DNA of 64,000 nt from a bacterium (GCA_021816845.1 JAKAWT010000002.1:33017-97016), one strand, 5' to 3'; counted from the first letter of the stretch, positions 3,089 through 58,730 are shown. The notes: generated by a model not told the origin, from the sequence alone. Program-made: numbers and translations.

Positions 3089-5476
3089 CTATCTAAAAGT
3101 AAGGGTGTCCTTAAATTCCTTCAATAATGTGTTTTTTATATCATCAATCTTATCTTTTATTTCAGTACCTAAAAATGTTTTCTCAAAGTTTTCAAACACC
3201 AATCTTATTGTTATACTTGTTTCATCATTTTTGATCTTGTCTCCGTTATAAATATCTATAATATCTTTTGTTTTTAGATTTGTGTCATTAATTTTATCCA
3301 GTATGTCTTTAGAATTAATTTTATTTTTATATAATATTGTTATATCTTCTTTTATTTCTGGAAATTTAGATATATTTTTTATATTAATAAATTTACCTAT
3401 ATTATTATGTAGATCTTCTATATTAATATCAAAAATTGATAAGCTTCCATATATCCCGAAGTTTTCTTTAACAAGTGAACTTATATCACCTATCTCACCT
3501 ATATAGTTTCCAGATATATAAACTTTACTACCCTTATTCTTTAAAAATGGTTTCTCTGGGTTACCACTATATTCGAATGTATTATTCAAATTCAAATATA
3601 AATTTATGGTATCAAGGATTCCTTTTATATGGAAAAATGACTCCTCTTTATCTTTACTAAAATATGCAGTTATAAGATGTAACTCTTCTTTTGGTTGAAT
3701 AGTATTGTTTTTTAGATAAATATTAGCTATCTCATATAATATAAAAGAATCCATATGTTTTTGGTTAGTACTTACTATATCAAGCATGGATGGTATTAAT
3801 GAAGGTCTTAAAAGATCAAAATTGGGTGATATAGGATTTAAGATCCTTATTGAATCATTTTTGATTAAAGATTTATCCATTAAAGCCTGGTTTATGAAAG
3901 AATAGGTCTTTATTTCATAACCTCCAAGCGATGCGATGATTCTTATTATCTTATTATTCATTTCAAATGTAAGGTTCTTTCTTACAGGCATAATAGTCAT
4001 ATTGGAATCTTCAATATTAATATTGTCATATCCATATATCCTACCAATCTCTTCAATCAAGTCTACATCTTCTTTTATATCAAATCTTGTATCAGGTATA
4101 GTTGCAAAAATAAAATTTTTAATTTGTTTATTTTTAATATCTAAACTTGATAATATACTAGAAACATCATTTATAGGGATATTCATTCCTAAAACTTTCT
4201 CTATTTTAGAGATGTCCAATTTTATAACTAAATTATCCTCCAATTTTTTTGTTATAACATCAGTAACTAAGCTTGATATATTACCATTAGTAGTTTGTAT
4301 AATTAGATCTATTGCATAATTTAATGCTTTTAATGCTAATGACTGTGAAATACCTTTCTCATACCTTAATACTGCTTCAGATCTTATATTCACTGATTTT
4401 GCACTTTTTCTAACAAGTGATGAATTAAAGGTTGCACTTTCTAGTAATATGCTTTGCGTATTTTCATCTATTTCTGATTCTTTTCCTCCCATTACCCCAG
4501 CTATTCCTATACTTGCATTTTTTGTTGCTATGACATAATTATTTTCTTTTAATAATCTTCTTTTTGAATCAAGGGTAATAATTTCTTCATTATATTTTGC
4601 TTTCCTTACATATATTTCTAGATTATTATCTTTAGATATTTTTGAAAGGTCAAAGGCGTGTAAAGGTTGTCCTAAATTTACCATCACATAGTTTGTTATA
4701 TCTACTATGTTGTTTATAGGTTTAATACCTAAATTTTTCAATCTTTCTCTCATCCAGAAAGGAGATTCTTCAACTTTGAGATTGTCAATAGTAACTGCAC
4801 AATATCTATAACAAAATTCTTTATCCTCAATATTAACCTTTAATTTGTTATCCTTGTTAGTTCTTATTTTGGGTATAACTTTTTCACTAAAAGGTTTATT
4901 TTGTATAGCAGCAAATTCCCTTGCAATACCCTGATGGGAAAATAAATCACCTCTATGAGATATAACTTTGTTGTCAATATCTATAATTGTATCTTTGATG
5001 ACACTTTTGAGGCTTTTACCTATATATTTTCTAAATAACATATCTTCAGTAGATCCAGATCCAAGATCAAGAATTCCAGAATGGTTTTCTCCTAAACCTA
5101 GTTCTTTCTCTGAACACATCATTCCATAAGATATCTCACCTCTAAAATCATGTTTTTCTATATTCTGTCCATTTATCTTTCCTCCTGCCAAAACTACTGG
5201 GACTATCATCCCTTTATATACATTAGGTGCTCCAGTTATGATTTGTATTTCCTTATTCTTAATGTCTACCTTTGTTACATAAAGTCTATCTGCATTCTTG
5301 TGTTTATAAATCTCTTTTACTTCACCTATTAATATGTCCTCTTCAAATGAAGGATATTCTGTTATTGAATCAACATCCACTGATTTTATTGCGAATCTAT
5401 CTATAAGGTTATAAAGATCGTTCCTATTGTCAGGGATATAGGTATATTTTTTTATTAAATCTAAAGATATTTTCAT
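3089..5476 (-). CDS. pheT: Phenylalanyl-tRNA synthetase beta subunit
   Basis: 795 aa. Domain architecture and its position immediately after pheS in the conserved thrS-infC-rpmI-rplT-pheS-pheT arrangement. Confidence 0.9.
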   Translation of the reverse strand: MKISLDLIKKYTYIPDNRNDLYNLIDRFAIKSVDVDSITEYPSFEEDILIGEVKEIYKHKNADRLYVTKVDIKNKEIQIITGAPNVYKGMIVPVVLAGGKINGQNIEKHDFRGEISYGMMCSEKELGLGENHSGILDLGSGSTEDMLFRKYIGKSLKSVIKDTIIDIDNKVISHRGDLFSHQGIAREFAAIQNKPFSEKVIPKIRTNKDNKLKVNIEDKEFCYRYCAVTIDNLKVEESPFWMRERLKNLGIKPINNIVDITNYVMVNLGQPLHAFDLSKISKDNNLEIYVRKAKYNEEIITLDSKRRLLKENNYVIATKNASIGIAGVMGGKESEIDENTQSILLESATFNSSLVRKSAKSVNIRSEAVLRYEKGISQSLALKALNYAIDLIIQTTNGNISSLVTDVITKKLEDNLVIKLDISKIEKVLGMNIPINDVSSILSSLDIKNKQIKNFIFATIPDTRFDIKEDVDLIEEIGRIYGYDNINIEDSNMTIMPVRKNLTFEMNNKIIRIIASLGGYEIKTYSFINQALMDKSLIKNDSIRILNPISPNFDLLRPSLIPSMLDIVSTNQKHMDSFILYEIANIYLKNNTIQPKEELHLITAYFSKDKEESFFHIKGILDTINLYLNLNNTFEYSGNPEKPFLKNKGSKVYISGNYIGEIGDISSLVKENFGIYGSLSIFDINIEDLHNNIGKFINIKNISKFPEIKEDITILYKNKINSKDILDKINDTNLKTKDIIDIYNGDKIKNDETSITIRLVFENFEKTFLGTEIKDKIDDIKNTLLKEFKDTLTFR

Positions 5477-6534
5477 TATATGTTCCTAAATTGAGATAAG
5501 AATCTTATATCATTTTCATAGAAAAGTCTTGTATCATCAACTCTGTCTTTTATCATAACTAGTCTTTCTATACCTGTCCCGAATGCAAATCCTTGATATT
5601 TATTTGGGTCTATATTAACATTTCTCAGTACTTGTGGGTGTACCATACCAGCTCCTAACAGTTCTAGCCATCCTTTATTGGAGCATATTTTGCACCCCTT
5701 CATATCGCAAAATATGCAAGAACAATCTATTTCTATACTTGGCTCTGTAAAAGGAAAATATGAGTTTCTTATTCTTAATCTTATATTCTCATTATCAAAT
5801 ATCCTTTTTAAGGCTCCTTGCAATATATTTGATAAATCTTTTAAATTACTTTTATCATCAATAACTAACCCTTCAAATTGATGAAACATAAAGGAATGTC
5901 TAGAATCACTATTTTCATTCCTATAAACTTTTCCCGGTGCGATAATCCTTATTGGTGGAGCATTATTCTGCATTGTTCTTATCTGGACAGAAGAGGTATG
6001 AGTCCTTGGTAGTAATTCATCTTCCTTTATATAAAATGTGTCTTGCATGTCTCTAGCAGGATGCCCTATTGGTATATTTAATGCTTGAAAACAAAACCAA
6101 TCAGTTTCAATTTCAGGGCCTTCTGCAATTTCGAAACCATAGACCGCAAAAGTATCTTCTATTAGTTTTATCATTGCACTGATTGGATGGATAGAGCCTA
6201 TACTCAATGTTTTACCTGTATTTAATTTATATCCTGATATTGTAGTGTCTATTGTTTCACTATCCTCTTTGTCATAAAGAGTTTGTCTTAATTTCTCTTC
6301 TTGCTGTTTCAAATTATTGGAGATATTCTCTTTTACTTTGTTGGCAAATTGACCAATTTCTTTTCTTTCTGAAATAGTTAATTTTGATATATTTCTCAAT
6401 ATTGCTGATAAATCGCTGTTCTTTCCTAAATTAGTAGAGTGGAATTTCTTAATATCCTCTAGATTTTCTAGAGTTTCTATAGCACTTATAGATGTTTTCC
6501 ATATTTTTTCAACATCCTTTTTTATTTTTTCCAT
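5476..6534 (-). CDS. pheS: Phenylalanyl-tRNA synthetase alpha subunit
   Basis: Class II core motifs FPFTEPSIEID and GWLELLGAGMVHPQVL. 352 aa. Confidence 0.92.
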   Translation of the reverse strand: MEKIKKDVEKIWKTSISAIETLENLEDIKKFHSTNLGKNSDLSAILRNISKLTISERKEIGQFANKVKENISNNLKQQEEKLRQTLYDKEDSETIDTTISGYKLNTGKTLSIGSIHPISAMIKLIEDTFAVYGFEIAEGPEIETDWFCFQALNIPIGHPARDMQDTFYIKEDELLPRTHTSSVQIRTMQNNAPPIRIIAPGKVYRNENSDSRHSFMFHQFEGLVIDDKSNLKDLSNILQGALKRIFDNENIRLRIRNSYFPFTEPSIEIDCSCIFCDMKGCKICSNKGWLELLGAGMVHPQVLRNVNIDPNKYQGFAFGTGIERLVMIKDRVDDTRLFYENDIRFLSQFRNI

Positions 6535-6538
6535 TTGG

Positions 6539-6889
6539 TTATTCTTTATTCTGTACTGTATTTACAATACTTTTGAACACTGCATAATCTTCTGTAGCAA
6601 AATGAGCCAAAACCTTTCTGTTGATTTCAATCTTTTTATCCTTTTCAAGCTTAGAAAATGTTGAATAATTTATACTAAAATCTTTAAGTGCTGCATTTAT
6701 CCTTATAATCCATAATTTCTTTATGTCATTCTTCTTTTGTTTTCTCCCATTAAATGAATACTGCCCTGCATGTAAAATAGCCTCTTTAGCAGTTTTAACT
6801 AATGCATGTTTAGTTAGTCTATAACCTTTGGTTTGTTTATGAACTTTATTATGTCTTGCATGTTTTGTAATTCCTTTTTTTATTCTCAT
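6539..6889 (-). CDS. rplT: 50S ribosomal protein L20
   Basis: MRIKKGITKHARHNKVHKQTKGYR is a typical L20 N-terminus. 116 aa. Confidence 0.93.
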   Translation of the reverse strand: MRIKKGITKHARHNKVHKQTKGYRLTKHALVKTAKEAILHAGQYSFNGRKQKKNDIKKLWIIRINAALKDFSINYSTFSKLEKDKKIEINRKVLAHFATEDYAVFKSIVNTVQNKE

Positions 6890-6893
6890 GGTA

Positions 6894-7082
6894 TTATTTT
6901 ACAAATTTTAATATTTTTGAAGTTGCAGTCTTTGATAATACTTGATCTTTTCTATCTCTGTTTTTACGCTTAGAAGTTCTTTTAGATATAAGATGATTAA
7001 CTCCTTTTATCTTATGTAGAAGCTTATTATTCTTTGTCCTTTTGAATCTTTTTGAGATAATTTTTTTTGTTTTTATTTTCAT
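6894..7082 (-). CDS. rpmI: 50S ribosomal protein L35
   Basis: 62-aa basic protein MKIKTKKIISKRFKRTKNNKLLHK between infC and rplT. Confidence 0.88.
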   Translation of the reverse strand: MKIKTKKIISKRFKRTKNNKLLHKIKGVNHLISKRTSKRKNRDRKDQVLSKTATSKILKFVK

Positions 7083-7098
7083 TTTTAAATCTATTCTA

Positions 7099-7611
7099 TT
7101 ATGTTATCGGTTGAACTTGAGCTATAGTATTCCTACCTTCTTGTTTAGGAATATTTTCTATTTTAGCATCGTCTTTTAAGCTTTCTATAATTCTATCCAT
7201 AAGTATTCTGGAATTTTCTACATTTCCTCTCCCAGTTTGACGTATAACTATCTTTACTCTATGATGATCTTCCAAGAACTCTTTTATTTTATTTATTTTA
7301 TTATTATAATCTCCTATTCCAATAAAAGGCTTGAATCTAATTTCTTTTATCTCTTTATGTCTATTTTTCTTGTTTGCCTCCCTATCCTTTTTACTCTGTT
7401 CATATTTATACTTTGAATATGACATTATCTTGCAAACTGGAGGATTGGCATTTGGTGCAATTTCTATTAAATCTAATCCTCTATCTTGAGCTTTTATTAT
7501 GGCATCTTGTTTATTTAATATACCAAGGAATTCACCATTTTCATCAATAACCCTCAATTCATTGGCTTTTATGTAATTATTATAACTTATAAATCTCCTT
7601 TTCAGGTTAAT
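7099..7611 (-). CDS. infC: Translation initiation factor IF-3, proposed ATT (AUU) start
   Basis: GEFLGIL...DRGLDLIEIAPNANPPVCKIM matches IF3. The ORF track starts at an internal TTG (7557). Extending the frame upstream gives NLKRRFISYNNYIKANELRVIDENG, which aligns with the E. coli IF3 N-terminus. There is no ATG or GTG in frame. An ATT at 7609-7611 is preceded by a perfect SD. Confidence 0.8.
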   Translation of the reverse strand: MNLKRRFISYNNYIKANELRVIDENGEFLGILNKQDAIIKAQDRGLDLIEIAPNANPPVCKIMSYSKYKYEQSKKDREANKKNRHKEIKEIRFKPFIGIGDYNNKINKIKEFLEDHHRVKIVIRQTGRGNVENSRILMDRIIESLKDDAKIENIPKQEGRNTIAQVQPIT

Positions 7612-7615
7612 AGAA

Positions 7616-7623
7616 TCCTCCTT
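7616..7623 (-). promoter_or_regulatory. Shine-Dalgarno AAGGAGGA for infC
   Basis: Minus-strand sequence reads aaatAAGGAGGAttctATT. It is the strongest SD in the window and sits 4-5 nt before the proposed ATT start. Confidence 0.7.
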
Positions 7624-7683
7624 ATTTGAACTAATAATATTGTGATAATATCAAAGATTTTTTTCTTTGTAAAGTAATATCAT

Positions 7684-8274
7684 TCAATAATTTATTTTTT
7701 TATTATTTTCTTCCAGGAATTTTAAATTTGATTCAATAAAATGTGCAAATTTTTCTTTTTGTATATTTGATATCTTATATTTTTTACCAAAAATATCCTC
7801 AAAGGCTTCTGTCTGAGTAAAAATTTCTATATTAAGGTCATTATTTTCATGATACACAATTATTTTAGTGAAGTCTTCATTTTTACTTTCTATAGAGTAT
7901 GTTATAGTCTCTCTATTTTCATCTATACTTACTATAATATATATAGGACTGGAATTTAAATCAGGGGTACGTATCCTAAATGCAACATACCTTTCTCCAC
8001 TAATTTGTAATTTTTTTTCAATATCATATTCATTTTCAAGGTATATATAACTTTTATTATATATATTAATTAAAGAATAGAAAGAAGTAATCAGTTTTAT
8101 AGCATATATGTCCTTACCTTCTATACTTTCTATAAACTTTAACTGATTAGTAATTTCTTTTTTGATATTGGAGACTATATAATCAAAAAGTTCTTTATCA
8201 TAACCTTTGAAAGGATTATATATTTTTGTCTTAGTGAGAAGTTTTAAGTACCTTGAAATTACAAATTCATCCAT
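7684..8274 (-). CDS. Hypothetical protein (about 196-212 aa) of unknown function inside the thrS-infC operon
   Basis: Long ORF in AT-rich DNA on the operon strand. The start is ambiguous: TTG at 8322, ATG at 8295, or ATG at 8274 (MDEFVISRY...). The 8274 start overlaps the upstream gene by 8 nt. I recognise no family. Confidence 0.55.
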   Translation of the reverse strand: MDEFVISRYLKLLTKTKIYNPFKGYDKELFDYIVSNIKKEITNQLKFIESIEGKDIYAIKLITSFYSLINIYNKSYIYLENEYDIEKKLQISGERYVAFRIRTPDLNSSPIYIIVSIDENRETITYSIESKNEDFTKIIVYHENNDLNIEIFTQTEAFEDIFGKKYKISNIQKEKFAHFIESNLKFLEENNKKINY

Positions 8275-8716
8275 ATATTTTATTTGAAAAGTCATCAACA
8301 AAGGTGTTATATTCTTTTTCAAGAACTACTTCTTTTTCAATATTTTTTATAAAACCAGCATACTGCATTGCTCCCTTCAAAATATTAATCTTTATTTTTT
8401 TCTCTATTATAACTTTGTATCCCCTCCTCTGTTTTTTCTCAAGTTCGAAAGTGTAAATTCCACTATCATTTTTTATTCCAATAATAAACTTTGGTGTTAA
8501 GTGAATATACCCTTTATATGGTTTATTAAAGAATAAAATCTTATCAGAGTGGATTCCATTTCTAGTCTTTTTCTTTACAAGCATACTTTGCTTTGGATTT
8601 ACTAACATATGCCTTAAATTTAATATTTCACTGCTTAAATTCTGACTTTCAAACTTTTTAGAGGTATCTATTATAAAGAGTTCTAGCTTATTGTAGAAAG
8701 AGACATTCTGACTCAT
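8267..8716 (-). CDS. Hypothetical basic protein (149 aa) of unknown function
   Basis: ATG preceded by GGAG (aatGGAGttatATG). Lys-rich. I recognise no family. Confidence 0.6.
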   Translation of the reverse strand: MSQNVSFYNKLELFIIDTSKKFESQNLSSEILNLRHMLVNPKQSMLVKKKTRNGIHSDKILFFNKPYKGYIHLTPKFIIGIKNDSGIYTFELEKKQRRGYKVIIEKKIKINILKGAMQYAGFIKNIEKEVVLEKEYNTFVDDFSNKIYG

Positions 8717-8764
8717 ATAACTCCATTATATATATAGTAATTATTCTTTACAATAGGAAATATT

Positions 8765-8788
8765 ATTTAAAATAAGCTTATTTTAAAT
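8765..8788. repeat. 24-bp perfect palindrome ATTTAAAATAAGCTTATTTTAAAT between the thrS stop and the hypothetical gene pair
   Basis: The two 12-nt arms are exact reverse complements, centred on AGCT. It sits in a 79-bp spacer. Confidence 0.6.
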
Positions 8789-8795
8789 TACAAAA

Positions 8796-10619
8796 TTATA
8801 TCTTTTCACTATTTAAAATATCTAAAAGTTCACTCAAAGATAAATTATTAGAATATTTTAGATCTTCCCTCCAGTTTATTGTGAATGCCCACTCATTAGT
8901 ATTTTTTCTGTTTAAAACTTCTTTCTCACCAATAACAATTTTTGCAGGTATTTTTTCTAAAGATGCAGTTCTTATCTTCTTTCCTATTCCCTCTTCAGTA
9001 ATATCTATATCTACTCTTACCCCCAAATTTCTCATGCTGCTAGCCAATTCTATTACATTATCATTATACTTATCAGATACTGATATTAATCTTATCTGTA
9101 TGGGTGCGAATTTTAATGGAAAATTCCCTCCTGTTTGTTCAATCATAAAAGCAATAAATCTCTCATAAGATCCTAATATAGATCTATGTATTACTATGGG
9201 AGTTTCTTCTTTCCCATACTTATTAATATACTTAAGGCCCATCCTACCTGGTACCAAGATGTCTATTTGTATTGTTGCTATCGAATCTTCTTTACCATAT
9301 ACATTCTTAATCTGTACATCCAATTTTGGTCCATAAAATGCTGCCTCTCCAATTTCTTCTTTAAATTCACTATGAGATTCCTTTAAGGCTTCTCTAATAT
9401 TGGATGATGCAAAATCCCACATATCTTTATCTCCTTCATATTTATCTTTCTTAAAGTCAGGGAGTGATAATCTAAAATAGTAATTTTTAATTCCCAAATC
9501 TGTGTATACAGATTGAAATATAGAAAGAACATCCATAAACTCTTTTTTTAGTTGATCTTTTGATACATAAATATGAGAATCATTTTGTGTAATAGGTCCT
9601 CTGACTCTTATAAGACCTGTTAATGTACCAGACCTTTCATTTCTGTATAATGGACTTTCTTCTGCAAGTTTAAAAGGTAACTGTCTATAACTTTGTACCA
9701 TTTTTTCAAATATCATATGATGATGAGGGCAATTCATTGGTTTTACATAAAAAATATTATTCTCCTTATCTTTTATCTGATACATATCTTCACTATAAAA
9801 TTTCACATGACCAGATCTTTCATATAATTTCTTATTTGTTAATATTGGGGTAGATACATACTTATATTCTAAATTTTCTTCTATTTTTCTCATATATCTT
9901 TCTAGAAGATATTTTAATTGTTCCCCATTTGGTAAGAGTAAAGGTAATCCTTGTCCCACATCCTCTGATATCATGAAAATTTTCAATTTTTCACCTATTA
10001 CCCTGTGATCCCTATTTTTATTCTCTTCCCTCTCTTTCAGATAATTTAAAAGGGTACTTTTATCTTTAAAACATACTGAATATATTCTTGTTAACATAGG
10101 ATTTTTCTCATCTCCTCTAAAATATGCCCCAGCTATAGATGTTAATTTAAAAGGACCTATATCTTTTAATGATTTTACATGTCCACCTTTGCAAAGATTT
10201 ATAAAGTCCCCTGTTTTATAGAATGTTACAGTATCACTCCCACTTTTACTTTTATCTTTAGACATCTCACTTTTATTTGTGCTACCCATACTTTCTATAT
10301 CTTTAAGTAGAGATAAAGAATATGGCTGTTTCGTATCTTCTAGAAATTTTTTAGCTTCATCTATAGTCATTTCTATTTTTACAAATGGATAGTCATTTTT
10401 TTGTATTTCTAGCATCTTTTTCTCTATCTTTAGAAGATCTTCCTCTTGTATTTTTATATCCCCAAAATCAAAATCATAATAAAAACCGTCATCAATGGCT
10501 GGTCCTATTGCTAGTTTTACATTTGGATACAGAGTCTGTACAGCATACGCTAATAAATGAGCTCCGGAGTGCCTCATAGCAGTCTCATTTACTTTAATTT
10601 TATTATTATTTCCTCTCAT
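8796..10619 (-). CDS. thrS: Threonyl-tRNA synthetase (lacks the N-terminal TGS domain)
   Basis: RHSGAHLLAYAV (editing-domain histidines), class II core, and C-terminal HRSILGSYERFIAFMIEQTGGNFP. 607 aa, beginning within the N2 domain. Confidence 0.9.
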   Translation of the reverse strand: MRGNNNKIKVNETAMRHSGAHLLAYAVQTLYPNVKLAIGPAIDDGFYYDFDFGDIKIQEEDLLKIEKKMLEIQKNDYPFVKIEMTIDEAKKFLEDTKQPYSLSLLKDIESMGSTNKSEMSKDKSKSGSDTVTFYKTGDFINLCKGGHVKSLKDIGPFKLTSIAGAYFRGDEKNPMLTRIYSVCFKDKSTLLNYLKEREENKNRDHRVIGEKLKIFMISEDVGQGLPLLLPNGEQLKYLLERYMRKIEENLEYKYVSTPILTNKKLYERSGHVKFYSEDMYQIKDKENNIFYVKPMNCPHHHMIFEKMVQSYRQLPFKLAEESPLYRNERSGTLTGLIRVRGPITQNDSHIYVSKDQLKKEFMDVLSIFQSVYTDLGIKNYYFRLSLPDFKKDKYEGDKDMWDFASSNIREALKESHSEFKEEIGEAAFYGPKLDVQIKNVYGKEDSIATIQIDILVPGRMGLKYINKYGKEETPIVIHRSILGSYERFIAFMIEQTGGNFPLKFAPIQIRLISVSDKYNDNVIELASSMRNLGVRVDIDITEEGIGKKIRTASLEKIPAKIVIGEKEVLNRKNTNEWAFTINWREDLKYSNNLSLSELLDILNSEKI

Positions 10620-10643
10620 TATTATTTTTAGATTTGAGTTCCT

Positions 10644-11249
10644 CTAGATCTCACGAATCTTAATTCTCTTTCTATAAATTATATATATAATGATCACAAC
10701 TACAATAGCTACAGTTATAAATGTTAATGATTGTAGTATTTTCAACAATAAAGGAATATTTTCTCCTAGAGTGTATCCCAATATTCCATATAATGTTGCC
10801 CAAACTATTGCACCAGTTATATTGTATATAAAAAATTGCTTATAATCTAATTTGTGTATACCTGCTGTCACTGGAACAAACATTCTTAATAATGATACAA
10901 ATCTTCCAAAAAATACTGTTTTCATACCATACCTTTTAAAAAATCCTCCTGTATATTCTAAGTAATCTTTCTTTAAGGAAAATGTTTTATGGATATATAT
11001 TGATGCTCTCTTACCATATTTCCTACCTATTAGATATCCAAGATTATCACCTATAGATGCACCTAAGATTGCAAATAATATAACCAATGTAATATGAAAT
11101 CTTGTAGGTGCTAACGCTGCATATACTGCCCCAGCAATAAGTGAAGTTTCTCCTGGAAGAGGAACTCCAAGTGTTTCGATCATTATAAATAAAGCTATTA
11201 TTATATAACCATAATTATTTATAAGATTCATTATTAAATGTAGAAGCAT
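10644..11249 (-). CDS. DedA/TVP38 family membrane protein (paralog 1 of 3)
   Basis: IETLGVPLPGETSLIAGAVYA and FFGRFVSLLRMFVPVTAG. Multi-TM. Confidence 0.8.
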   Translation of the reverse strand: MLLHLIMNLINNYGYIIIALFIMIETLGVPLPGETSLIAGAVYAALAPTRFHITLVILFAILGASIGDNLGYLIGRKYGKRASIYIHKTFSLKKDYLEYTGGFFKRYGMKTVFFGRFVSLLRMFVPVTAGIHKLDYKQFFIYNITGAIVWATLYGILGYTLGENIPLLLKILQSLTFITVAIVVVIIIYIIYRKRIKIREI

Positions 11250-11300: not shown

Positions 11301-11377
11301 TGGTGGGTCCGACAGGATTTGAACCTGTGACCTCAACAATGTCGATGTTGCGCTCTAACCAACTGAGCTACGAACCC
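11301..11377 (-). tRNA. tRNA-Val (anticodon GAC), CCA encoded
   Basis: Manual cloverleaf fold: acceptor GGGTTCG/CGGACCC, anticodon stem CAACA/TGTTG, loop TCGACAT. 3' ACCA is encoded. Position 33 reads C, which is unusual. Confidence 0.75.
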
Positions 11378-11964: not shown

Positions 11965-13041
11965 TTATTTTCCTTCGTGTCTAGACTTGTTGGGTCTGGA
12001 TCCTTTTACAATATTAACTGAGGCAGTCATCACCTTATTATACAATATTGTGTTAAATATTTCTTCTAATTCAGATCTACTATCTTTTATTTGATTAATT
12101 TGCTCAGAAGTAAGACTAGATAATCTCTCTTCTATATCTTCTTTAGTTACAGTTATAGAGTTAGTTGCAGCAAAATCTTGTATAAATAAATCTAATTTTA
12201 ATTGCCTTATTATATCTTGTTCAAGGCTAGCTACAACTTTCTCATGAGTTGTTCCTATATTTTTGAAATATTCATCCATACTTATTCCCTGACTCTCAAC
12301 AAATTGTCTAGTTCTATCAATTGATGATGTAACATAATTTGTAATGATATATTCTGGAATATCTTCTTTTTTTAGTATTACTGCATCTATTATTGCTTCT
12401 ATTATCATGTTATCTAGAATATTATCTATAGATATATCCTTATTATTTATAAAATTCTCATATGCAGATTTCTCTTCATCTGTCTTAGGATTCTTGTACT
12501 TTTCAGATGTTTTATTATACTCTTCTTCTGCTGTCTCCCTTGGTATATTTATATTATTTAGGTTAACTTTATTAATTTTAGGCTTTATGTAACCTGAAAA
12601 GTTTAATTCTATATCACGATCTTCTCTCATTTCATCTATGAAGTTTTGATTGATGGATATACTCATTAAATCTTTAATTTGACTAACTATAAAATCATTA
12701 ATTATATGATTAATTTCATCATATGCATCTTTAAAAATAACTTCATTGTATTTTTGGAAAACTAATTTTTGTGGGGCATTTCCTTTTCTAAAACCCTTTA
12801 TTTCAGTATTCCTTATATAATTATTAGTTACATCATCTATAGTTTTTTTTATTAGCTCTTTAGGAATTTTTGTAGTGAAAGCAATACTAGATTTCTCACC
12901 TTTATTAATATTTAATATCTCTATATCCTTGAGTCTAGATTCTTTGGATTTAGGTTCTCTGAGCTTAGACTCTTTAATTATAGTTTTTTTTGGTTTTTGT
13001 ATCGTATCTTTTTTATTAGCTTTCATAATATTCTTCATCAT
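11965..13041 (-). CDS. tig: Trigger factor-like chaperone (N- and C-domains present; the PPIase domain appears absent; Lys-rich N-terminal extension)
   Basis: Ribosome-binding signature GFRKGNAP. Position immediately upstream of clpP. 358 aa versus about 430 for canonical TF. Confidence 0.7.
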
Positions 13042-13486
13042 CTAACTTAGAAGTTATGTTGGATATATATTCATCTTCTTCCTCAAAGAAATCATTATCA
13101 TGTAAAGTATCTCTTTCTGTATCTAATAGATCGGTATTTCTCTTAACTTTTGGCTTCTTTTTTAAAGGTTTACCACATATTGGGCAAAAATCAGCCTCTA
13201 GAACGTCTTCCTTACAATTAACGCACTTAACAACTTTAATATCTGATGCTATATTAGGTATATCCTCTGTGACTATAGGGATTTCAGGTATATCAATTAA
13301 TTCTTCATCGGTATTCTCATCTATTGCAACTTCAGGTATTGTATCTACTAGAATATCTTCATCTAAGAATATATTGTCAATTTCTTCCTCCCTATCATCA
13401 CTTATTATTGGTTCTTCATCTTGTATACCGATCAATTCAGATTTCGATTCATTCTTTTTATTTGTATTTTTTTTAATTTTTGACAT
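13016..13486 (-). CDS. Hypothetical highly acidic protein with an internal zinc ribbon (CVNCKEDVLEADFCPICGKPL)
   Basis: 156 aa, D/E-rich, C-x2-C-x9-CPxCG. First gene of the minus-strand operon. Overlaps the tig start by 26 nt. Confidence 0.55.
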   Translation of the reverse strand: MSKIKKNTNKKNESKSELIGIQDEEPIISDDREEEIDNIFLDEDILVDTIPEVAIDENTDEELIDIPEIPIVTEDIPNIASDIKVVKCVNCKEDVLEADFCPICGKPLKKKPKVKRNTDLLDTERDTLHDNDFFEEEDEYISNITSKLDDEEYYES

Positions 13487-15370: not shown

Positions 15371-15442
15371 GAGGGTATAGCTCAACGGTAGAGCATCAGC
15401 CTCTTAAGCTGTTGGTTCTGGGTTCGAATCCCAGTGCCCTCA
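15371..15442 (+). tRNA. tRNA-Lys (anticodon CTT)
   Basis: Manual fold: acceptor GAGGGTA/TGCCCTC, anticodon loop CTCTTAA, T-arm CTGGGTTCGAATCCCAG. No encoded CCA. Confidence 0.7.
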
Positions 15443-15558
15443 AGTAAGCGCTGTCAATAATATCTAAAGTATAGCAATTTATTGATTGAGTTAACATTTC
15501 CAAGGTATCTATATCAGAAGATTAGAATAAAATTTTAATTATTATTGTTTCTCCATAA

Positions 15559-15633
15559 AGCACCTAGAGAGATTTGAACTCCCGACATTCTCGTCCGAAG
15601 CGAGATGCTCTATCCAGACTGAGCTATAGGTGC
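15559..15633 (-). tRNA. tRNA-Arg (anticodon TCG)
   Basis: Manual fold: acceptor GCACCTA/TAGGTGC, anticodon stem TCTCG/CGAGA, loop CTTCGGA. No CCA. Confidence 0.7.
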
Positions 15634-15638
15634 AAAAT

Positions 15639-15711
15639 CGCTCTCGGCAGGACTCGAACCTGCACTCTTCTCCTTAGAAGGGAGTTGCTTTATCCATTAA
15701 GCTACGAAAGC
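15639..15711 (-). tRNA. tRNA-Arg (anticodon TCT)
   Basis: Manual fold: acceptor GCTTTCG/CGAGAGC, loop CTTCTAA, T-arm GCAGGTTCGAGTCCTGC. No CCA. Confidence 0.7.
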
Positions 15712-15721
15712 ATAATATTTA

Positions 15722-15798
15722 TGGGGTAAATGGTGGGGTTTGAACCCACGACCTACCGCTCCACAGGCGGTCGCTCTACCAACTGAGCTACATTCACC
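15722..15798 (-). tRNA. tRNA-His (anticodon GTG) with genomically encoded G-1 and CCA
   Basis: Manual fold: an extra 5' G pairs with C73; anticodon stem ACCGC/GCGGT, loop CTGTGGA; 3' CCCA is encoded. Confidence 0.8.
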
Positions 15799-34585: not shown

Positions 34586-35812
34586 ATGATAGAAAGAGAT
34601 ATTCTACTGGAACTTAAACAAGGGTTAGATAATAATAAGACAACTATAGTTTTAGGTTCTCCAAGGGTTGGGAAAACTACTTTACTTGATATGATATCTG
34701 GATATATAAAAAATAAAAGTATAGGGAATTATGTATATATTGATTTTAAAATATATAGGAATGACTATTCAAAATTTCTAGTAGATCTAGATAATAATAC
34801 TAAGAAATTAAAATTGGAAAAAAGTAATAAAATATATCTTTTATTAGATAATTTCAATTTAAATAATCTGGAAAATAAATTGAATTTTGATAATATTTTT
34901 TATAAATGTATTATAACAAGAGGTTTATTTGATGTAGAAAATACAAATAATATTGAAGTTTTAAAATTATATACACTATCTTTTTTAGAATTTGCAAAAT
35001 ATAAAACACATTATCAATACCCTAAGATGAATAATTTTTTCGATATGTATCCAATATTAGCTTTTGATATCTTTAATGAATATTTAAGGTTTGGAGGATA
35101 TCCTGAAGTTGTATTAGAAGAGACAATTGAAGCCAAAGTAAAAGCACTTAAAGATATATATATTCAATCTATAGAGAAATCTAAATTCAAGAATATTTCT
35201 GGATTAGTAGATTTTCTAACATATATTGCAAATAAAGTTGGAAGAAATGTAAATACCGGATTCTTTACTATTGTTAGTGTATTCAAGGCTCAGGATATTA
35301 TAGATTACTCAACCTATTTACAAAAAATAGGAATTATAAAGGAATTATCTGATTTTAAAAATGAATACCATCCAATATATTATTTTACAGATTTAGGATT
35401 ACGTAACTACATATTAAATGAAAATTCAATAGAAAAACTTGATGATGACCATTATATATTCTCTAACTTTGTATTTATTATAATACTTCATATTTTTTCA
35501 AATTATAAAGAAGTTATATCAATAAAATATTTGAGAGGATATCAAAGAGTACGTTCAGAAATTATAGTTATAAGGGAAGATGGCCATGTTATAATAAGAC
35601 CGACAATATGGAATAGATTAGATCATATTAATGATACAATAGTATCATATATGAGCGATAGTAGGTTTAGAAATTTATTTATAGTAACTATAGCTGGATA
35701 TGATGATTTATTTTATGAAGATAAAAAAATTTCTAGAATTCCATACTATGAACTCTTTTATCTAAACCTTTTTTTAAATGATCAAAATACTCCAAGACAA
35801 CATAGCAAATAA
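34586..35812 (+). CDS. COG1373-type AAA+ ATPase with C-terminal DUF4143-like region
   Basis: P-loop LGSPRVGKTTLLD; LYTLSFLEF, matching the L(Y)PLSF.EF signature; YLRFGGYPEV. 408 aa. Confidence 0.6.
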   Translation: MIERDILLELKQGLDNNKTTIVLGSPRVGKTTLLDMISGYIKNKSIGNYVYIDFKIYRNDYSKFLVDLDNNTKKLKLEKSNKIYLLLDNFNLNNLENKLNFDNIFYKCIITRGLFDVENTNNIEVLKLYTLSFLEFAKYKTHYQYPKMNNFFDMYPILAFDIFNEYLRFGGYPEVVLEETIEAKVKALKDIYIQSIEKSKFKNISGLVDFLTYIANKVGRNVNTGFFTIVSVFKAQDIIDYSTYLQKIGIIKELSDFKNEYHPIYYFTDLGLRNYILNENSIEKLDDDHYIFSNFVFIIILHIFSNYKEVISIKYLRGYQRVRSEIIVIREDGHVIIRPTIWNRLDHINDTIVSYMSDSRFRNLFIVTIAGYDDLFYEDKKISRIPYYELFYLNLFLNDQNTPRQHSK

Positions 35813-46673: not shown

Positions 46674-47732
46674 ATGGCAAAATTCGCAAAAGATAAAACA
46701 GGCACAGACAATGTTGAAGACGTAGTAGAGGTAAAGGTTCAAGAAAAGAAATCTTTAGCTAATAGGCTATATTCCAAGTCAGCATTTTCTAATAAGGAAC
46801 AAAGACCTAAAGTTATTATATCTACTATTGTATTATTACTTTTTGTTATAGTGGTAGCTTTATTTTTTGTTATGTATAATTTTGGTACATATATACCAGG
46901 AGTTTCTACTGTTGTAGATAAAGTTCCTATATTATCTAATCTTGATAGATCAGCACAGAATATATTACCTAAAACTGCTACATCAGAACAAAATGTTACT
47001 GGATATCATTTTAATGTTGATTTTGCACTTAATTCTCAAGGTTCATCTACAACTAGTGGTAATATTGCACAATCGTTCTCTGGTAATGTAGATTTTTCAA
47101 ATCCTAAGAATATACAACTTCAGTCTTTGCTTTCAGAAAAAATATCTAGTTCTAAGTCCGCTTTTAATATTGATGGAAAAGTAATACAGACAAATAATAA
47201 AATGTATTTAAACTTTTCTAAATTTCCTTCTGTATTGAATACAGGAATAAAATTAAATCAATGGGTTACATTACCAAAACCACAGTTTAATTTTTTGGAA
47301 GATTTAACAAATGAATCAAATATGCCTAACATTAATACTCTCCAAGTTGCAATGAAGGGAAATGAAATACTTAATGGTACATCTGTTACCAAATATGAGG
47401 TTACTTATCCTAAAGCTGATTTTTCTTCTATAAATCTTTCTAAGGCACTAGAATCATTGTCAGGAATGTCTAATATGCAAAGTATTATATCATCAAAGAC
47501 TATAACAGTTGATGAATGGGTTGGGGTTGCAGACAATAAAATATACCAAGAATCTGTTAAATTTTCAGTTGCAGGCCAGACTCCTACAACACTGTATTTT
47601 GGTATATCAATGAGTAGTTTTAACTCACCATTTAGTATTACTGCTCCATCTAAGACTACAACAGTTTCAGGTAGTAAATCTACTTCGTCATCTGGATCTT
47701 CTGGATCTGGATCCACATCAAGTAAAAAATGA
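46674..47732 (+). CDS. Hypothetical N-terminally anchored extracytoplasmic protein with Ser-rich C-terminus
   Basis: Single TM helix at about residues 45-70, then 280 aa of polar sequence ending SGSKSTSSSGSSGSGSTSSKK. I recognise no family. Confidence 0.5.
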   Translation: MAKFAKDKTGTDNVEDVVEVKVQEKKSLANRLYSKSAFSNKEQRPKVIISTIVLLLFVIVVALFFVMYNFGTYIPGVSTVVDKVPILSNLDRSAQNILPKTATSEQNVTGYHFNVDFALNSQGSSTTSGNIAQSFSGNVDFSNPKNIQLQSLLSEKISSSKSAFNIDGKVIQTNNKMYLNFSKFPSVLNTGIKLNQWVTLPKPQFNFLEDLTNESNMPNINTLQVAMKGNEILNGTSVTKYEVTYPKADFSSINLSKALESLSGMSNMQSIISSKTITVDEWVGVADNKIYQESVKFSVAGQTPTTLYFGISMSSFNSPFSITAPSKTTTVSGSKSTSSSGSSGSGSTSSKK

Positions 47733-48322: not shown

Positions 48323-48396
48323 GGTTGCGTGGTGTAGTGGTCTAACATGTCTCCCTGTCACGGAGAAGATCGACGGTTCGAATCCGTTCGCAACCG
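48323..48396 (+). tRNA. tRNA-Asp (anticodon GTC)
   Basis: Manual fold: acceptor GGTTGCG/CGCAACC, anticodon stem TCTCC/GGAGA, loop CTGTCAC. No CCA. Confidence 0.75.
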
Positions 48397-49880: not shown

Positions 49881-49952
49881 AGTGAGAGACGGGATTCGGA
49901 CCCGCGATCTCTTCCTTGGGAAGGAAGCATTCTACCACTGAACTACTCTCAC
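49881..49952 (-). tRNA. tRNA-Gly (anticodon CCC)
   Basis: Manual fold: acceptor GTGAGAG/CTCTCAC, anticodon stem CTTCC/GGAAG, loop TTCCCAA. The T-loop reads TCCGAAT, which is atypical. No CCA. Confidence 0.65.
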
Positions 49953-49959
49953 ATTATTA

Positions 49960-50031
49960 GCCGATAAGCAGACTCAAACTGCTGTCTCCACTTTACGAGG
50001 GTGATGCTTTATCAGTTAAGCTATATCGGCA
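49960..50031 (-). tRNA. tRNA-Thr (anticodon CGT)
   Basis: Manual fold: acceptor GCCGATA/TATCGGC, D-stem GCTT/AAGC, loop CTCGTAA, T-arm AGCAGTTTGAGTCTGCT. No CCA. Confidence 0.65.
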
Positions 50032-56993: not shown

Positions 56994-58001
56994 ATGAATT
57001 TAGACTTAGATTTGAACTTAAGTTTATTCAAATACTCTGTAGATATTATTACACTAAGCTCTCTTTTGAACTCTCTTGAAATTCCAAAAAAAATTACAGA
57101 TGATCTAACGATCAAAGATTTTGATCAGTTTGCAAATTTATTAAATTTAGATGTATCTAATACTAATATACGTGATTTTGCTCTAGGATATCACAGGATT
57201 GATACTGGTTTTGCTAATACAATGCTTAGTTCTTATAGAAGTATCAATGAACTTGTTAGATCTTTGTATCAGGATAAAGGGAATGTATTTACAGTATCTA
57301 CAATATTAAGGATGAATAAAGTCTTAACTGATAAAACATTTGAAGTATGGGAGAGTGGTAAATTTAGGACTATTGAATTTCCTTATCAAGGAGAATACGA
57401 TTTCATAAGGGGAGAAGATTTATCATATGATACAATCTCAACTGACATAAATATGTTAGTCGATTTTTATCAAGATTCACAATATCCTAATATATTGAAA
57501 ATACCTATAATTGGATACAACCTTTTAAAACTAAAGCCATTTTCTGTATTAAATGATTTCACTATACTTTTTATAATGAAATCTTTGATGATAGAGATTG
57601 AGATATTTAATGATTTATCTCTAGTAAAAATATTTTCAGAAAATCTTGAAAATATGCAAATTTCGAACCAATCTTTAGATACATGGGTTGGAAACTTTTT
57701 TAAATACATATACATTGAATTATTAGAGATTTATGATTTTATAAATAAATATATTTCATTAGAAAAACGAAGATTAAATTCAGATAAAATTGTATCAATA
57801 CTGTCGGATAGACAAAAGAAAGCATTTTTGTTTTTTGTAGATCATAGGACTCTTACAAGACAGGAGTATTCGAGGATGTTTAAAATATCTCCTATGACAG
57901 CATTTAGAGATTTAGATATGATGAAGGAGTTAGGAATACTAACTGTTTTTGGTAAAGGTAGAGGTACTAAATATACTATAATGGAGAAATATTTATTATA
58001 G
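56994..58001 (+). CDS. Fic-family-like protein with degenerate active-site motif and C-terminal winged-HTH
   Basis: The C-terminus LSDRQKKAFLFFVDHRTLTRQEYSRMFKISPMTAFRDLDMMKELGILTVFGKGRGTKYTI matches the Fic C-terminal wHTH pattern. The core-motif position reads LKLKPFSVLNDFT instead of HPFx(D/E)GNGR. Confidence 0.4.
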   Translation: MNLDLDLNLSLFKYSVDIITLSSLLNSLEIPKKITDDLTIKDFDQFANLLNLDVSNTNIRDFALGYHRIDTGFANTMLSSYRSINELVRSLYQDKGNVFTVSTILRMNKVLTDKTFEVWESGKFRTIEFPYQGEYDFIRGEDLSYDTISTDINMLVDFYQDSQYPNILKIPIIGYNLLKLKPFSVLNDFTILFIMKSLMIEIEIFNDLSLVKIFSENLENMQISNQSLDTWVGNFFKYIYIELLEIYDFINKYISLEKRRLNSDKIVSILSDRQKKAFLFFVDHRTLTRQEYSRMFKISPMTAFRDLDMMKELGILTVFGKGRGTKYTIMEKYLL

Positions 58002-58730
58002 ATAAGATTTTATAATATTTGCAAAATAGCTGTATGAATATGCACCTAAAATTAATTGTCCTTGTACTTTGTTGTTCTTAAGTCTACCTATCACGATTGT
58101 TGGAGTTCCCTGTATATTGATCCTATTACCACTGGCTATATCCTTTTGTATATCCAGTTCATAAGTTTTATTAGTTACACAGGATGCATATTTATTCATA
58201 TTAAGTCCCATAGTTCTGGCGTAACCTGAAACAATAGAAGGGGTATTACTATTTTGTGCTGTTGTATACATTTTATTATAATATTGCCAGAACTTACCTT
58301 GTGCTGCAAAGCATCTTCCTTCTATGGCCATTTCAGAAGATAATGGATGTATATTAGTTAATGGGTAATCTCTGAAAGCGAATACGGCTTGACCAGTTTT
58401 AACAAAATTTGTATATATAGAATTTCCTGCTCCATTTGCAAATTGTTTACAGAAAGGACATTGGAAATCACCATATTCTACTATTCCAACTTTTGCAGTC
58501 TTTAAATTGCCTTCAACTGGATAAGAACCAAGTGATACAGTTACATCTTTGTTATTTGTAGGTGGAGTAGCAATATTGGACGTTTTTGTTGATGTATTAG
58601 AATTGTTGTTTCTTGACGCTGTATTGCTAGATAATACTATAGCTGCAGCTATAATGATTCCTGCAATAACTATTGAAATTGGTAATACCATTGGGTTGGT
58701 GTGCTTAGTATTTAGATTATCCTGATTCAT
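57996..58730 (-). CDS. DsbA-family thiol-disulfide oxidoreductase, membrane-anchored
   Basis: CxxC active site FQCPFCKQF. N-terminal TM helix. 244 aa. Confidence 0.8.
   Translation of the reverse strand: MNQDNLNTKHTNPMVLPISIVIAGIIIAAAIVLSSNTASRNNNSNTSTKTSNIATPPTNNKDVTVSLGSYPVEGNLKTAKVGIVEYGDFQCPFCKQFANGAGNSIYTNFVKTGQAVFAFRDYPLTNIHPLSSEMAIEGRCFAAQGKFWQYYNKMYTTAQNSNTPSIVSGYARTMGLNMNKYASCVTNKTYELDIQKDIASGNRINIQGTPTIVIGRLKNNKVQGQLILGAYSYSYFANIIKSYL

Follow-up and report, generated by a model that had tools for sequence, protein, structure and literature searches.

Two adjacent genes, designated here open reading frames (ORFs) A and B, are interposed between thrS and infC on the minus strand of a bacterial DNA stretch of 64,000 nucleotides (nt) (GCA_021816845.1 JAKAWT010000002.1:33017-97016), which is referred to below as the window and whose positions serve as coordinates. 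Both are real protein-coding genes under strong constraint. The comparison with related genomes strongly supports that they represent two previously undescribed families limited to one small low-GC (~28%) lineage of the Patescibacteria, and the alignment of their upstream regions strongly supports that the pair has a strictly conserved sigma-70-type promoter of its own. The protein families are new, and the locus as a whole is a well-known gene cluster in a form specific to this clade. The anatomy of the locus and the reality of the genes are presented with high confidence, and a role of the products in association with translation is proposed tentatively.

Patescibacteria (Candidate Phyla Radiation, CPR) are characterised by very small genomes and a reduced translation apparatus, and a large fraction of their genes lacks an assigned function; orphan conserved genes are abundant among them. 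Within this pool of unknowns the A-B pair stands out by its IF3-level constraint, its fixed place heading the infC-rpmI-rplT-pheST unit and its invariant promoter, and it is one of the better-defined candidates to prioritise. In addition, the two invariant promoters of the locus, the probable leaderless geometry of the A-B message and the AUU-type start of infC provide concrete transcription and translation signals for a lineage that has so far had none mapped by experiment.

Two Constrained Genes Within a Translation Gene Cluster

The order of genes on the minus strand is dedA, thrS, a 79-nt spacer, ORF A, ORF B, a 72-nt spacer, infC, rpmI, rplT, pheS and pheT (neighbours identified with Pfam), with thrS, infC, rpmI, rplT, pheS and pheT constituting a translation gene cluster on one strand into which A and B are interposed. 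This is the arrangement described in a first-pass annotation of the sequence, which had noticed two minus-strand genes between thrS and infC.

Several lines of evidence indicate that both frames are coding. Given the local base composition, the chance of a frame staying open is 1e-7 for 149 codons (A) and 7e-10 for 196 codons (B). In the comparison with L019, the closest relative (ThrS 86% identical), the ratio of nonsynonymous to synonymous substitution rates (dN/dS) is 0.024 for A and 0.034 for B, as compared with 0.037 for IF3, 0.076 for L20, 0.113 for ThrS and 0.132 for PheT, values obtained with synonymous sites near saturation (dS ~1.0–1.15). Over deeper divergence the identity of A and B (36–58%) falls between that of the trigger factor Tig (33–39%) and that of IF3 and ThrS (57–68%), and in the most distant lineages (36–41%) both proteins change faster than IF3 and ThrS (59–68%) and at a pace similar to that of trigger factor (33–39%). 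The length, start and junction of the two genes are kept in about 10 lineages. Their GC content (0.27 for A and 0.23 for B) and the GC content of their third codon positions (GC3; 0.27 and 0.16, respectively) are within the range of the neighbouring genes and hence give no sign of recent acquisition.

The view that A and B are spurious or decaying frames rather than functional genes could be defended on the grounds that homologues are lacking outside the clade and that the genome is AT-rich, with numerous spurious short ORFs on the other strand. It is effectively refuted, and its probability is taken as negligible, in view of the open-frame statistics (1e-7 to 7e-10), the dN/dS of ~0.03 at dS ~1 together with the preservation of length, start and junction, and the confident structural model of B (predicted template modelling score, pTM, 0.81).

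The length of B had been given as about 196–212 amino acids (aa). The 196-aa form, which starts at ATG 8274, is supported because an aligned Met opens every orthologue and because MHB8443167.1, a GenBank-annotated protein belonging to the same 90% cluster as B, is 196 aa long; the versions of 203 and 212 aa are extensions made by gene callers or the ORF finder.

Coupling of A and B and Promoter of the Pair

In the orthologues the distance between the end of A and the start of B is -8, -4, +2 or +7 nt, the junction being tight in all 9 lineages sampled. This disposition, in which the stop codon of A and the start codon of B overlap or lie almost next to each other in all lineages, implies on sequence grounds that translation of B is coupled to that of A. 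Both the 8-nt overlap at ATG 8274 seen in the window and the proposal of translational coupling made in the first-pass annotation are thus borne out by the comparison.

A putative sigma-70-type promoter (P_A) is located upstream of A and is composed of a -35 box TTGTAA (8753–8748), a spacer of 17 nt and a -10 box TATAAT (8730–8725). In the alignment of the upstream regions of 8 lineages, T.TTGTAA, the 17-nt distance and ATATAAT are invariant (column identity 1.0, with both hexamers conserved in 8/8 lineages) while the spacer and the flanks are scrambled and AT-rich (identity 0.2–0.5). The match of the single sequence to P_A is not above chance, and it is the invariance across lineages that constitutes the evidence for this promoter. 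The end of the -10 box is separated from the ATG of A by 8 nt in the window and by 6–8 nt across all lineages, a distance that would place the transcription start at or beside the ATG and make the A-B message probably leaderless or near-leaderless.

The GGAG sequence that had been taken as the Shine-Dalgarno (SD) sequence of A does exist in the window (8724–8721), where it lies between the invariant -10 box and the ATG; in the orthologues this position is occupied by AAATAT, AAAAGT, GAATAT, AGATTC and similar sequences. As GGAG is absent from the orthologues and is situated between the -10 box and the start codon, it is probably not a functional SD. Neither the invariant promoter of the pair nor the second promoter, which precedes infC, had been noticed in the earlier inspection of the sequence.

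The scarcity of SD sequences is not peculiar to A. An SD-like motif occurs within 20 nt in only ~8 of the 51 gene starts of the window, and several first genes display TATAAT-like boxes 8–14 nt before the ATG (357, 46674, 57996–58730 and 62043), a pattern which suggests that SD-independent initiation on messages with a short leader or no leader is common in this genome. IF3 antagonises leaderless initiation and discriminates against non-canonical start triplets (PMC4611024). The possibility of a feedback specific to IF3 on the leaderless message of A was considered and downgraded, given that most genes of the window have no SD and show -10-like boxes near their starts; as such starts are the rule in the window, the leaderless geometry is not read as a special link with IF3.

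A perfect 22-nt palindrome made up of A and T only (TTTAAAATAAGCTTATTTTAAA) is found on the minus strand at 8766–8787, just past the thrS stop codon. It forms a hairpin in the minimum free energy fold, yet this fold is no better than those of shuffled sequences, and most relatives have a spacer between thrS and A that is too short to accommodate it. The palindrome may represent a weak attenuator.

Promoter and Start Codon of infC

The putative infC promoter (P_infC) starts 10 nt beyond the stop codon of B and consists of CTTTACAAA with a -35 box TTTACA (7673–7668), a 17-nt spacer and an extended -10 box TGaTATTAT (TATTAT at 7650–7645). In the window it reads CTTTACAAA-N7-ATCTTTGATATTAT, and the motif CTTTACAAA-N7-ATCT(T/C)TG(A/G)TA..AT is invariant before infC in 9/9 lineages, that is, conservation reaches past the hexamers.

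As read from the sequence, infC has an SD AAGGAGG (7623–7617), a 5-nt spacer and an ATT start codon (7611–7609). The frame is open upstream of TTG 7557, the start chosen by the ORF finder, and this upstream portion encodes the conserved N-terminus of IF3; likewise, GGAGG followed by ATT or ATA is found at infC in the related sequences L006, L008, L015 and L019. In these same contigs and in that of the window, IF3 was truncated to 106–152 aa by gene callers. Autoregulation of infC through an AUU start is established, and a non-canonical infC start is the classical substrate of IF3 autoregulation.

No terminator-like site was detected on the minus strand between 6400 and 11400. Since no terminator intervenes and only 10 nt separate the stop of B from P_infC, transcripts that start at P_A very probably extend into infC, and transcription most likely reads through into the whole infC-rpmI-rplT-pheST unit. 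A search with Rfam over 6800–10800 detected no L20 leader, thrS operator or T-box RNA, either at the gathering threshold or at an expect value (E) <= 1, and the folding z-scores of the two spacers (-0.01 and -0.20) are no better than those of shuffled sequences; with Rfam empty and z-scores near zero, a regulatory RNA or terminator within the spacers was rejected.

The fact that these usual regulatory devices were not seen by Rfam, together with the conservation of P_infC past the minimal hexamers (CTTTACAAA ... ATCTTTGATA), its position only 10 nt after B and the strongly basic character of A, would fit a scheme in which A and/or B is a local regulator that binds the infC promoter DNA or the leader mRNA and tunes infC-rpmI-rplT. 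This role is possible but unsupported, and it is judged very unlikely: no helix-turn-helix, ribbon-helix-helix or other DNA-binding domain was found in either protein, the additional conserved positions are consistent with an extended -10 (TGn) and an element flanking the -35 box, and an apparent inverted repeat is not kept across lineages. The 8-mer TTGTAAAG, shared by the two promoters and considered as a common operator, is not enriched in the window and was discarded.

Properties of the Predicted Proteins

The products of the two genes have opposite charges, as had been anticipated: A is Lys-rich and basic (isoelectric point, pI, 9.74; 27 Lys + Arg vs. 15 Asp + Glu) and B is mildly acidic (pI 5.6). 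Neither contains a signal peptide or a transmembrane segment, and the maximum hydropathy over 19 residues (0.54 for A and 0.77 for B) is that of soluble proteins. Alignment of the family members shows that the C-terminal two-thirds of A is highly conserved (YKG...PKF.I.IKN..G...ELEKKQ..GYK) and that the invariant polar residues of B include R102, T103, D105, N107, E129, K137 and E150. These polar residues of B (R102-T-P-D105-x-N107, E129, K137, and E150) may belong to a functional site; they correspond to no motif known.

Searches of the window A and B against Pfam, NCBIfam, PADLOC, and PHROGs returned nothing beyond noise, in keeping with the first-pass annotation, in which no motif had been recognised. 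When Pfam was applied to all 9–10 members of each family, only scattered matches of single members were obtained. Rota_NSP4 (E 1.4e-3, below the gathering score), Tae4, WWE_2, RE_endonuc and others were regarded as noise, and so was the match of Ribosomal_L20 to one member of the A family (E 0.018).

Sequence profiles of the Protein Data Bank (PDB) gave no match for A and a single type of match for B, to LigT-like 2H phosphoesterases (2fyh, 1vdx/1vgj; residues 80–186, E 0.036–0.21). This identity was rejected because no His is invariant in the 10 B sequences, the HxT motif of the target (HITL) is aligned to EIF in B and the E value was not improved by adding sequences; it has no fold support either. 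The possibility that A and B are diverged paralogues of each other was discarded as well (hhalign probability 0.2%).

The AlphaFold2 model of B (predicted local distance difference test score, pLDDT, 80.7; pTM 0.81) is predicted to contain three N-terminal helices, an antiparallel sheet of 6–7 strands and a C-terminal helix. A comparison of this model with the PDB by means of Foldseek gave a best E of 0.12, with Whirly/PUR/MRP/p32-like proteins, whose folds bind RNA or single-stranded DNA, in the top ranks (E 0.12–0.6, template modelling score <= 0.26), none of them significant; the resemblance of the modelled B to these proteins is at most a lead. The predicted structure of A consists chiefly of an antiparallel beta sheet (a helix, ~7 antiparallel strands and a helix), in a model of low confidence (pLDDT 55.8). 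The structure searches of the PDB, a library expected to hold ribosome entries, yielded nothing specific for A or B. Confident remote homology of both proteins to ordinary housekeeping families, which had been named beforehand as an outcome that would speak against an undescribed system, was found neither in the PDB profile searches nor in the Foldseek PDB searches.

Distribution and Inheritance

Word-indexed searches of 5.8e9 clusters retrieved 4 relatives of A (7 with a profile) and 3 of B, and a full hidden Markov model scan of 1.84e9 representatives with the B profile retrieved 5 clusters in total, all within the clade. The scan of one genome per species of the Genome Taxonomy Database (GTDB) with the window ThrS showed that only L019 ('bacterium isolate clean1586') carries the pair; the next-best ThrS proteins (<= 53%) belong to Saccharibacteria and other Patescibacteria and are encoded in genomes with no pair. 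No relatives of A or B were found in JGI metagenome contigs, in IMG/VR or in phage and plasmid collections, by which a mobile origin of the pair was rejected, and no paralogue of either gene was found elsewhere in the window. A literature search on thrS/infC insertions in Patescibacteria found nothing relevant. The qualification of the pair as undescribed therefore holds: the families are tiny and clade-restricted, with no detectable sequence homologue beyond the clade, no credible counterpart among solved structures and no label other than that given by NCBI to the cluster members, 'hypothetical protein [Patescibacteria group bacterium]'.

The order thrS-A-B-infC-rpmI-rplT-pheS-pheT is present on every contig that is long enough, the most divergent lineages included, and usually within the same block of >20 kb, in which CTP synthase, DUF192, GT4, dedA, an orf, tig, clpP and dedA come ahead of the cluster and PBP1, tyrS and recG behind it. 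The neighbourhood search that the first-pass annotation had proposed thus located the pair at the same place before infC in every lineage and nowhere else. In one lineage, represented by L008 (1–1350) and L009 (1–1010), thrS is replaced by the remnant of an insertion sequence (IS)-type integrase (rve-like) and a divergent BrnT/BrnA pair that precede the A-B promoter; A-B is undisturbed and still joined to its own promoter and to infC. The slot upstream of A-B tolerates mobile insertions. The order infC-dedA'-thrS-A-B of L016 (1–640) was dismissed as that of a rotated or chimeric contig, 99.8–99.9% identical to L015 with the infC segment moved to the front; it is due to an assembly artefact or to a rotated repeat join and does not represent a real rearrangement. 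With a fixed locus and a divergence that parallels that of core genes, the inheritance of A-B looks vertical, not patchy or mobile.

The premise that infC comes straight after thrS in the majority of bacteria proved too strong as a generalization: infC is directly downstream in at least 12 of the 79 other genomes fetched with ThrS, a count that is a lower bound, and in the closest outgroups (Saccharibacteria) thrS and infC were not found adjacent.

A toxin-antitoxin (TA)-like pair or a small defence module, which here would be an anti-phage system placed inside the operon, was among the options initially put forward. A two-gene, overlapping and coupled cassette with its own promoter and with basic and acidic products would fit such systems, and a genuine BrnT/BrnA pair adjoins A-B in L008 and L009, at a site that tolerates insertions of this kind. 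These options are nevertheless disfavoured and considered highly improbable. No toxin, antitoxin or defence domain is present in any member according to PADLOC, Pfam and NCBIfam (with 0 PADLOC families at E <= 10 for A and B), and no DNA-binding antitoxin fold is recognisable. The pair occupies a single fixed locus in all lineages, diverges in parallel with the neighbouring core genes, has no paralogue in the window and is native in composition (GC3 included), and searches of phages, plasmids, IMG/VR viral contigs and JGI metagenomes yielded no relatives. A dN/dS of ~0.03, i.e., constraint at the level of IF3, is atypically low for such genes, and at 149 and 196 aa the proteins are bigger than is typical of type II pairs. 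As for defence, the neighbours are core housekeeping genes whose order is kept over >20 kb, not a variable defence island.

Possible Role of the A-B Pair

The reading favoured here is that A and B, soluble proteins of which one is basic and Lys-rich and the other acidic, would be made in fixed proportion and would act together as a cytoplasmic housekeeping complex, most plausibly a clade-specific RNA-binding or ribosome/translation-associated accessory factor. The pair would be transcribed from its own promoter, at the head of the infC-rpmI-rplT-pheST unit with its internal promoter. It is the opposite charge, the solubility, the fixed proportion and the co-expression with translation genes that suggest a cytoplasmic complex, plausibly associated with RNA or the ribosome. 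The idea of a ribosome-associated or translation factor, which had been raised in the first-pass annotation, is compatible with the evidence, gene context and charge being its basis. Judged from gene context, a translation-associated function of A and B is rather doubtful; the full explanation, which combines real, clade-restricted and coupled genes with this functional guess, is a possibility that falls somewhat short of an even chance; and the more specific version in which A and B would form a heterodimeric factor associated with the ribosome, tRNA or an aminoacyl-tRNA synthetase/IF3, with two folds that have no solved counterpart and a leaderless message, is unlikely.

A number of observations weigh against a translation-associated complex. 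None of the homology or fold searches that were run links A or B to RNA, ribosomes or translation, the model of A is of low confidence and the fold resemblances of B are not significant. SD-less starts with a short leader are usual in the window, so the leaderless geometry provides no special tie to IF3. As P_A and P_infC are both conserved, A-B could be regulated independently of infC. Finally, the gene clusters of this genome bring together housekeeping genes that have no relation to one another (dedA, clpP, and tig just upstream of the locus and a PBP gene downstream), which makes the gene neighbourhood weak evidence.

Because of this mixing of functions, it is equally tenable that A and B are conserved clade-specific housekeeping hitch-hikers with a non-translation role (structural, cell-cycle, envelope-precursor, or metabolic accessory) settled in a permissive and well-expressed slot between thrS and infC, an explanation that is a serious contender and likewise less than probable. 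The wider cluster includes genes for CTP synthase, a DUF192 protein, a GT4 glycosyltransferase, DedA, an orf, Tig, ClpP, and a second DedA before thrS, and for PBP1, TyrS, and RecG after the translation genes. Furthermore, separate promoters for the pair and infC mean that co-regulation is not required, other ORFs with no Pfam match are scattered in the window (13016–13486 and 46674–47732), and the same intergenic slot took an IS element and BrnTA in one lineage. The hitch-hiker explanation has to contend with a linkage to infC that is absolute in all lineages, the lack of a terminator between B and infC and a constraint on the pair that equals that on IF3; a direct envelope role, in particular, is unlikely because neither protein has transmembrane segments or a signal peptide. 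If the pair is translation-associated, it would represent a lineage-restricted addition to the otherwise minimal translation machinery of Patescibacteria; if not, it would be a well-behaved orphan housekeeping pair of the sort that is common in these genomes.

Other Features of the Window

The coordinates of the locus are compiled in Table 1.

Table 1. Features of the thrS-infC region, in window coordinates.
Feature	Position	Strand	Description
thrS	8796–10619	minus	607 aa; tRNA_SAD, class II core and anticodon-binding domains; upstream neighbour of A-B
P_A (putative promoter)	8725–8753	minus	Consensus scan and cross-lineage alignment
ORF A	8267–8716	minus	149 aa
A/B junction	8267–8274	minus	ATGGATGA; ATG of B over the TGA stop of A, 8-nt overlap
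ORF B	7684–8274	minus	196 aa
P_infC (putative promoter)	7645–7674	minus	Consensus scan and cross-lineage alignment
infC translation start	7609–7623	minus	Read from the sequence
infC-rpmI-rplT-pheS-pheT	3089–7611	minus	Downstream neighbours of A-B

The ThrS (threonyl-tRNA synthetase, ThrRS) encoded in the window has no match to the TGS domain and begins straight in the tRNA_SAD/editing domain; its C-terminal tail of ~40 aa is unmatched in most other ThrRS hits.

Additional ORFs were observed outside the locus. On the minus strand, a very acidic ORF of 156 aa (13016–13486; pI 4.15) with no Pfam match overlaps the start of tig, and an unannotated ORF of 141–148 aa is found at the equivalent place in L006, L015, and L100, which makes it another conserved clade-specific unknown. 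On the plus strand, an ORF of 352 aa without Pfam match is located at 46674–47732, and one of 408 aa (34586–35812), with only sub-threshold matches to AAA_14/DUF4143, lies between mutS and mutL; an ATPase similar to the latter occurs at different positions in L006 and L100. Rfam detected eight tRNA genes only in the whole 64 kb (a cluster of four at 15371–15797, and others at 11304–11377, 48323–48396, and 49881–50030), and no rRNA genes, riboswitches or leader RNAs.

Comparison with Known Systems

With regard to protein structure, the predicted B shares with the nucleic-acid-binding alpha+beta folds of the Whirly, PUR, MRP1-MRP2, and p32 (MAM33)-like type (2gje, 2gia, 8cht, 1yqf, 1l3a) an antiparallel sheet flanked by terminal helices, a similarity that is not significant. 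In gene organization, A-B is like the type II TA cassettes (e.g., BrnT/BrnA) in having two genes with overlapping start and stop codons, an own promoter and products of opposite charge; unlike them, it has no toxin or antitoxin domains, occupies a single vertically inherited locus, is subject to selection of the housekeeping level, encodes larger proteins and has no mobile relatives.

The closest parallel is the canonical thrS-infC-rpmI-rplT-pheS-pheT cluster (E. coli type; in Bacillus, the infC-rpmI-rplT operon). Unlike this cluster, the window contains two extra genes with an invariant promoter between thrS and infC, whereas in 12 other sampled genomes infC follows thrS after ~150–620 nt with nothing in between, and the thrS operator, T-box or L20-leader RNA of the canonical cluster were not detected by Rfam. 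In other respects the two are alike: the flanking genes are the same and in the same order, infC has a non-canonical AUU/AUA start behind a strong SD, and an internal promoter precedes infC in a cluster with no terminators within it.

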